Shown: piece by piece, positions 341 to 1,083 of the stretch
Layout of the letters: each line of letters starts with the position of its first letter
Position numbering within the stretch: the first letter of the stretch is position 1
Program-made: the position numbers and the translations under genes
From: Escherichia coli
GTDB taxonomy: Bacteria > Pseudomonadota > Gammaproteobacteria > Enterobacterales > Enterobacteriaceae
Assembly (NCBI RefSeq): GCF_003334785.1
Contig: NZ_QOWV01000053.1
Direction: 5' to 3' (one strand)
Length of the DNA stretch: 3,027 nucleotides
Notes under the pieces: generated by a model
Told to the model about the DNA's origin: nothing
The model's input: the letters and a program-made list of their open reading frames with translations, nothing else
The model's database searches: none

Positions 341-355
341 GGTCCTCTCGTACTA
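341..355 (-). other. Sarcin-ricin loop of 23S rRNA (E. coli 2653-2667), the elongation-factor binding site
   Basis: Window 341..355 is ggtcctctcgtacta, reverse complement UAGUACGAGAGGACC, the universally conserved motif. A2660 (ricin depurination site) maps to window 348 and G2661 to window 347 (the bond cleaved by alpha-sarcin lies between them). Confidence 0.9.
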
Positions 356-547
356 GGAGCAGCCCCCCTCAGTTCTCCAGCGCCCACGGCAGATAGGGAC
401 CGAACTGTCTCACGACGTTCTAAACCCAGCTCGCGTACCACTTTAAATGGCGAACAGCCATACCCTTGGGACCTACTTCAGCCCCAGGATGTGATGAGCC
501 GACATCGAGGTGCCAAACACCGCCGTCGATATGAACTCTTGGGCGGT

Positions 548-566
548 ATCAGCCTGTTATCCCCGG
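548..566 (-). other. Peptidyl transferase centre central-loop segment including G2447, A2451 and C2452 (E. coli 2442-2460)
   Basis: Window 548..566 is atcagcctgttatccccgg, reverse complement CCGGGGAUAACAGGCUGAU. A2451 maps to window 557. Confidence 0.85.
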
Positions 567-940
567 AGTACCTTTTATCCGTTGAGCGATGGCCCTTCCA
601 TTCAGAACCACCGGATCACTATGACCTGCTTTCGCACCTGCTCGCGCCGTCACGCTCGCAGTCAAGCTGGCTTATGCCATTGCACTAACCTCCTGATGTC
701 CGACCAGGATTAGCCAACCTTCGTGCTCCTCCGTTACTCTTTAGGAGGAGACCGCCCCAGTCAAACTACCCACCAGACACTGTCCGCAACCCGGATTACG
801 GGTCAACGTTAGAACATCAAACATTAAAGGGTGGTATTTCAAGGTCGGCTCCATGCAGACTGGCGTCCACACTTCAAAGCCTCCCACCTATCCTACACAT
901 CAAGGCTCAATGTTCAGTGTCAAGCTATAGTAAAGGTTCA

Positions 941-956
941 CGGGGTCTTTCCGTCT
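941..956 (-). other. Macrolide/lincosamide/streptogramin B binding segment of domain V (G2057, A2058, A2059, A2062 region)
   Basis: Window 945..956 is gtctttccgtct, reverse complement AGACGGAAAGAC. A2058 maps to window 950 and A2059 to window 949; both are the wild-type base. Confidence 0.85.
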
Positions 957-1083
957 TGCCGCGGGTACACTGCATCTTCACAGCGAGTTCAATTTCACTG
1001 AGTCTCGGGTGGAGACAGCCTGGCCATCATTACGCCATTCGTGCAGGTCGGAACTTACCCGACAAGGAATTTCGCTACCTTAG

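Follow-up and report, generated by a model that had tools for sequence, protein, structure and literature searches.

All 16 nucleotides of 23S rRNA domain V that the original prediction had listed as antibiotic-resistance hot spots carry the wild-type base in the 23S rRNA gene (rrl) of the Escherichia coli DNA stretch analysed here (3,027 nt in full; hereafter, the window), and the same holds for 30 further positions that we added to the list. With all 16 listed and all 30 added sites identical to those of rrlB from E. coli K-12, this copy is free of the well-known target-site mutations for macrolides, lincosamides, phenicols, oxazolidinones or pleuromutilins, exactly as had been claimed. The observation is confirmed; as a negative result, it is true but uninformative and was already known. 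Its significance is small: the negative call is correct but concerns one rRNA gene copy, and 23S target-site mutations are essentially never encountered in complete genomes of the species.

In the Rfam scan, the window gave one hit only, on the minus strand (104..3007), which corresponds to a complete bacterial large-subunit rRNA. The match to RF02541 (LSU_rRNA_bacteria) scores 2876.7 bits (gathering score, 50) and spans model positions 1-2925 of 2925 with no truncation, which places the gene among the bacterial large-subunit rRNAs. Its identity as an E. coli rrl gene is supported both by near-identity over the full length (2902 of the 2904 bases match K-12 rrlB, with no gaps) and by the operon context, with the ITS upstream, the spacer and 5S gene downstream, and flanks identical to those of rrnB. 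The window is almost certainly a standard chromosomal rrn operon segment on the minus strand, in which the end of a spacer is followed by the complete 23S gene, the spacer between 23S and 5S, and the beginning of the 5S gene (Table 1). By sequence, this 23S copy belongs to the rrlB/rrlG type. With megablast, each of the 5,426 complete E. coli genomes searched gave a match, at a median of seven places, and all 3,027 nt are present at 100% identity in several E. coli chromosomes. For the 5' end of the 5S gene, the K-12 annotation (a gene of 120 nt) and that of PGAP (116 nt) disagree by two bases: in strain LR-64-2, annotated with PGAP, the 5S gene begins two bases later than the K-12 rrfB start.

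Table 1. Features of the window, with 23S rRNA positions in E. coli numbering.
Feature	Window coordinates	Strand	Basis
Complete 23S rRNA gene (rrl), 2904 nt	104..3007	minus	Rfam match and ungapped alignment with rrlB, 2 substitutions
23S-5S internal spacer, 92 nt	12..103	minus	Identical to the K-12 sequence after rrlB; boundaries according to the K-12 annotation
5S rRNA gene, first 11 nt (UGCCUGGCGGC), cut by the window edge	1..11	minus	Identical to the start of K-12 rrfB
Spacer upstream of 23S, final 20 nt	3008..3027	minus	Identical to the 20 nt preceding rrlB in K-12
Position 1174: G (U in six K-12 copies, gap in the rrlA alignment)	1834..1834	minus	Comparison with rrlB and with the seven K-12 copies
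Position 1723: A (G in K-12 rrlB, rrlG and rrlE; A in rrlH, rrlD, rrlC and rrlA)	1285..1285	minus	
Span of the original prediction, 23S 2032-2660, which covers the larger part of domain V with the peptidyl-transferase centre and runs into domain VI as far as the sarcin-ricin loop	348..976	minus	
Macrolide/lincosamide contact bases G2057, A2058, A2059, (A2060, G2061), A2062, wild type	946..951	minus	Direct read
G2032, wild type	976..976	minus	Direct read
Peptidyl-transferase-centre bases G2447, A2451, C2452, A2453, wild type	555..561	minus	Direct read
C2499, U2500, A2503, U2504, G2505, U2506, wild type	502..509	minus	Direct read
A2572, G2576, G2583, U2584, U2585, wild type	423..436	minus	Direct read
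U2609, C2610, C2611, wild type	397..399	minus	Direct read

Each of the 16 bases stands with the RNA identity and the window coordinate that had been assigned to it: G2032 (976), G2057 (951), A2058 (950), A2059 (949), A2062 (946), G2447 (561), A2451 (557), C2452 (556), A2503 (505), U2504 (504), G2505 (503), G2576 (432), U2584 (424), U2585 (423), U2609 (399) and C2611 (397). All 16 are the same as in rrlB and are embedded in identical 11-nt contexts, the plus strand showing the complement. The span in which these bases lie, 348-976, had been described as belonging to domain V. This holds for most of it but not for its lower bound, given that position 348 is A2660 of the sarcin-ricin loop, in domain VI; the lowest listed position is 397, and the span extends past it. 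Along its entire length, this span is identical to K-12 rrlB.

The 30 added sites, which we take to represent target-site resistance positions and catalytic residues, are 745, 748, 752, 754, 1067, 1095, 2055, 2060, 2061, 2252, 2253, 2453, 2469-2471, 2478, 2480, 2482, 2499, 2500, 2506, 2534-2536, 2572, 2583, 2602, 2610, 2660 and 2661; none shows a substitution relative to rrlB. Thus, no mutation was found, and the rrlB base is present, at the hairpin-35 sites (745, 748, 752 and 754), the thiostrepton sites (1067 and 1095), and the sites in the evernimicin/avilamycin region and in the sarcin-ricin loop. G2061, A2453 and U2500, which the earlier list had omitted, are wild type as well. At 2480 and 2534, the window and rrlB share a base other than the one expected, a discrepancy that reflects a mistaken expectation or a difference between species and no variant in the window. 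For the added sites in domain V, the agreement follows from the complete lack of differences between the window and rrlB or rrlG across E. coli positions 2030-2630. Considered as a candidate target-site resistance allele, the gene shows the rrlB base throughout, at 2032, 2057-2062, 2447, 2451-2453, 2499-2506, 2572, 2576, 2609-2611 and 752/754. As the listed bases are those of the reference, to which the whole gene is 99.93% identical, the question of whether they agree more often than expected by chance does not apply.

The published record supports the choice of positions in the original prediction. Phenotypes have been described for A2058G, A2059G, G2061A/U, G2447A, A2451U, C2452U, A2453G, U2500A/C, A2503G, U2504G/C/A and G2505A, and pleuromutilin binding shields U2506, U2584 and U2585 against chemical probes (PMC7345174). 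Positions 752, 2057-2059, 2452 and 2611 are those reported for macrolides, lincosamides and ketolides, and A2058 and A2503 are the targets of Erm and Cfr, respectively (PMC10967556). For linezolid, the substitutions are G2576U and G2447U, and the MIC climbs with the count of mutated rrn copies (PMC9431193, PMC4868352). In E. coli, substitutions of A2451 have a dominant lethal effect, according to Thompson et al. 2001 as cited in PMC7345174, so the wild-type base at this position carries no information.

To place the window in the context of the species, we surveyed the same 5,426 complete E. coli genomes, which contain about 37,900 rrl copies. Two substitutions, A2058G and G2576U, were counted across the collection, each with a 61-mer probe bearing the single mutant base at its centre, such that an exact match denotes a copy carrying the mutation. 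Neither probe had an exact match in any copy of the 5,426 genomes: the best of the 5,433 records matching the A2058G probe reached 98.4% identity (one mismatch), and the best match of the G2576U probe likewise contained one mismatch. In its wild-type form, the span 348-976 has an identity of 99% or more in each of the 5,426 chromosomes. From among the most divergent copies, five were sampled for comparison; their only differences from the window are at 2163, 2203-2215, 2300 and 2640, the last two being single-base deletions in one and the same assembly, and at the listed and added resistance positions these five copies show no difference. Taken together, the absence of A2058G and G2576U, the near-identity of the span and the unchanged hot spots of the divergent copies indicate that the all-wild-type state is the norm for the species.

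The principal variable spot of domain V among E. coli genomes is located at window positions 793-805 (2203-2215), where every copy in some strains carries up to five or six clustered changes; K-12 rrlC differs at 2203 and 2211. A small number of E. coli plasmid records also contain 23S rRNA sequence, at 10-45 places, and one 2,750-bp record (NZ_AP027888.1) contains a 23S fragment that is just 82.9% identical to the window. These plasmid-record sequences may be assembly fragments or contaminants.

A wild-type reading of this kind could be coincidental if an indel shifted the numbering, such that the wrong bases were inspected. The concern is reasonable in principle, since rrl indels do occur in E. 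coli: K-12 rrlA is 2905 nt long, and rrlD aligns with a compensating pair of gaps at 2546/2549. There is, however, no support for such a shift in the window. Global alignment with K-12 MG1655 rrlB, the check that the original prediction had proposed, produced one ungapped 2904-nt block with 2 mismatches (1174 and 1723), both outside domain V; the reference base is found in all the listed columns, and an indel that would shift the numbering was looked for and is absent. The conversion on which the coordinates were based, window position = 3008 - E. coli position, is therefore exact for every 23S base throughout the gene. Given the ungapped block and the identical 11-nt contexts around the listed bases, shifted numbering is excluded. 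The only practical use of the result is as a sanity check, showing that the conversion to E. coli numbering is reliable for other findings in this window.

The remaining alternatives locate resistance elsewhere in the same genome. Other rrl copies of the source genome might carry a target-site mutation while the copy in the window is wild type; the window shows a single copy, one of about seven, and the caution about multiple rrl copies in the original prediction was well placed. In multi-copy species, resistance grows with the number of mutated copies, and mutations may be present in some rrn loci only (PMC4868352). Against such heterozygosity, no copy in the 5,426 complete genomes carries A2058G or G2576U, and the sampled divergent copies vary in domain V only at the few positions given above. 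On the basis of the two substitutions that were counted and of the divergent copies sampled, the prior for a heterozygous rrl complement is very low, and we consider this alternative exceedingly improbable. A different route to resistance would be an acquired gene whose product modifies the target, by dimethylation of A2058 (Erm) or C8-methylation of A2503 (Cfr), in which case the wild-type DNA would hide a resistant ribosome. The erm and cfr genes have been found on plasmids of some E. coli isolates. Both mechanisms exist and are invisible in rDNA (PMC10967556, PMC9431193), as had been correctly cautioned, and the window, because it consists of rRNA and spacer sequence only, is neutral, with no evidence either way; we regard modification of this kind as unlikely. 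The reading that we retain, namely, an unmutated drug target encoded by this copy, covers one rrl copy; rRNA modification, the ribosomal proteins uL3, uL4 and uL22, and any acquired resistance genes are beyond what the window contains.

The two bases that depart from rrlB are ordinary polymorphisms. By prediction, G1174 belongs to a hairpin loop and A1723 is unpaired in an internal loop, and the predicted local fold and its energy are unchanged by either base. Among E. coli records, 1,370 contain the 61-mer with the G1174 allele exactly, and 3,066 match the A1723 allele exactly in the context found in the window. The possibility that G1174 and A1723 are unusual variants was accordingly rejected: both are common polymorphisms in predicted loops. 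The pairing of the two, as judged from exact matches to the full window, occurs in a few complete genomes only. No sign of any functional effect of G1174 together with A1723 was found, both bases being predicted to be unpaired, and there is hardly any chance that their combination on an rrlB-type 23S marks a lineage, or a product of rrl gene conversion, with functional consequence.

Several observations pertain to the surroundings of these bases. A1723 is the base found in rrlH, rrlD, rrlC and rrlA, yet in the window it is accompanied by an rrlB-type segment 1725-1735, so that the region is a blend of two K-12 hairpin sequence types. In this segment (window 1273-1283), rrlH, rrlD, rrlC and rrlA show paired changes across the hairpin tip compared with the window and rrlB (UCC...GGA versus CGA...UCG). 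The predicted stem is retained despite these changes, which therefore represent compensatory variation between copies of one genome. The 61-mer centred on 1174 matched 3,584 of the 5,426 genomes, compared to 5,416 or all 5,426 for the other 61-mers. This low count is an artefact of the search and has no biological meaning; nearby polymorphisms (rrlA differs at 1171 and 1178) may break the 28-base megablast seed.

With regard to function, domain V, which forms both the peptidyl-transferase centre and the exit-tunnel entrance, is here base for base that of the K-12 reference, and each nucleotide known to reduce binding in the five drug classes when altered has its drug-binding (wild-type) identity. 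Extrapolating from established knowledge of the ribosome, ribosomes built from this copy would be expected to bind the drugs normally unless the rRNA is modified post-transcriptionally. The term 'susceptible' describes the drug target alone and not the organism. E. coli has a low intrinsic susceptibility to the majority of these drug classes, owing to its outer membrane and efflux, and the drugs are mostly not used against it. Furthermore, the list includes several universally conserved residues of the catalytic centre, at which viable mutants are hardly to be expected.

Compared with known resistance alleles (such as A2058G, A2059G, C2611U, G2576U, G2447U, U2504G and G2032A), the window contains the same gene and the same columns but is wild type at each of them and does not belong to this class. 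Among the seven rrl copies of K-12 MG1655, the nearest to the window are rrlB and rrlG (b3970/b2589), which are identical to each other over the span compared. They share with the window the length of 2904 nt, the flanks that fall within the window and all of domain V, and differ from it at two positions, 1174 (G in the window, U in K-12) and 1723 (A in the window, G in K-12). Full-length identity is found in E. coli LR-64-2 (NZ_AP027595.1), where the 23S gene at the rrnG locus matches the window at 100% across all 3,027 nt, and among the matches listed, two other chromosomes are also perfect over the full length (5590 bits). The LR-64-2 copy lies in the order clpB - 16S - tRNA-Glu - 23S - 5S - kgtP, which is that of the rrnG locus.
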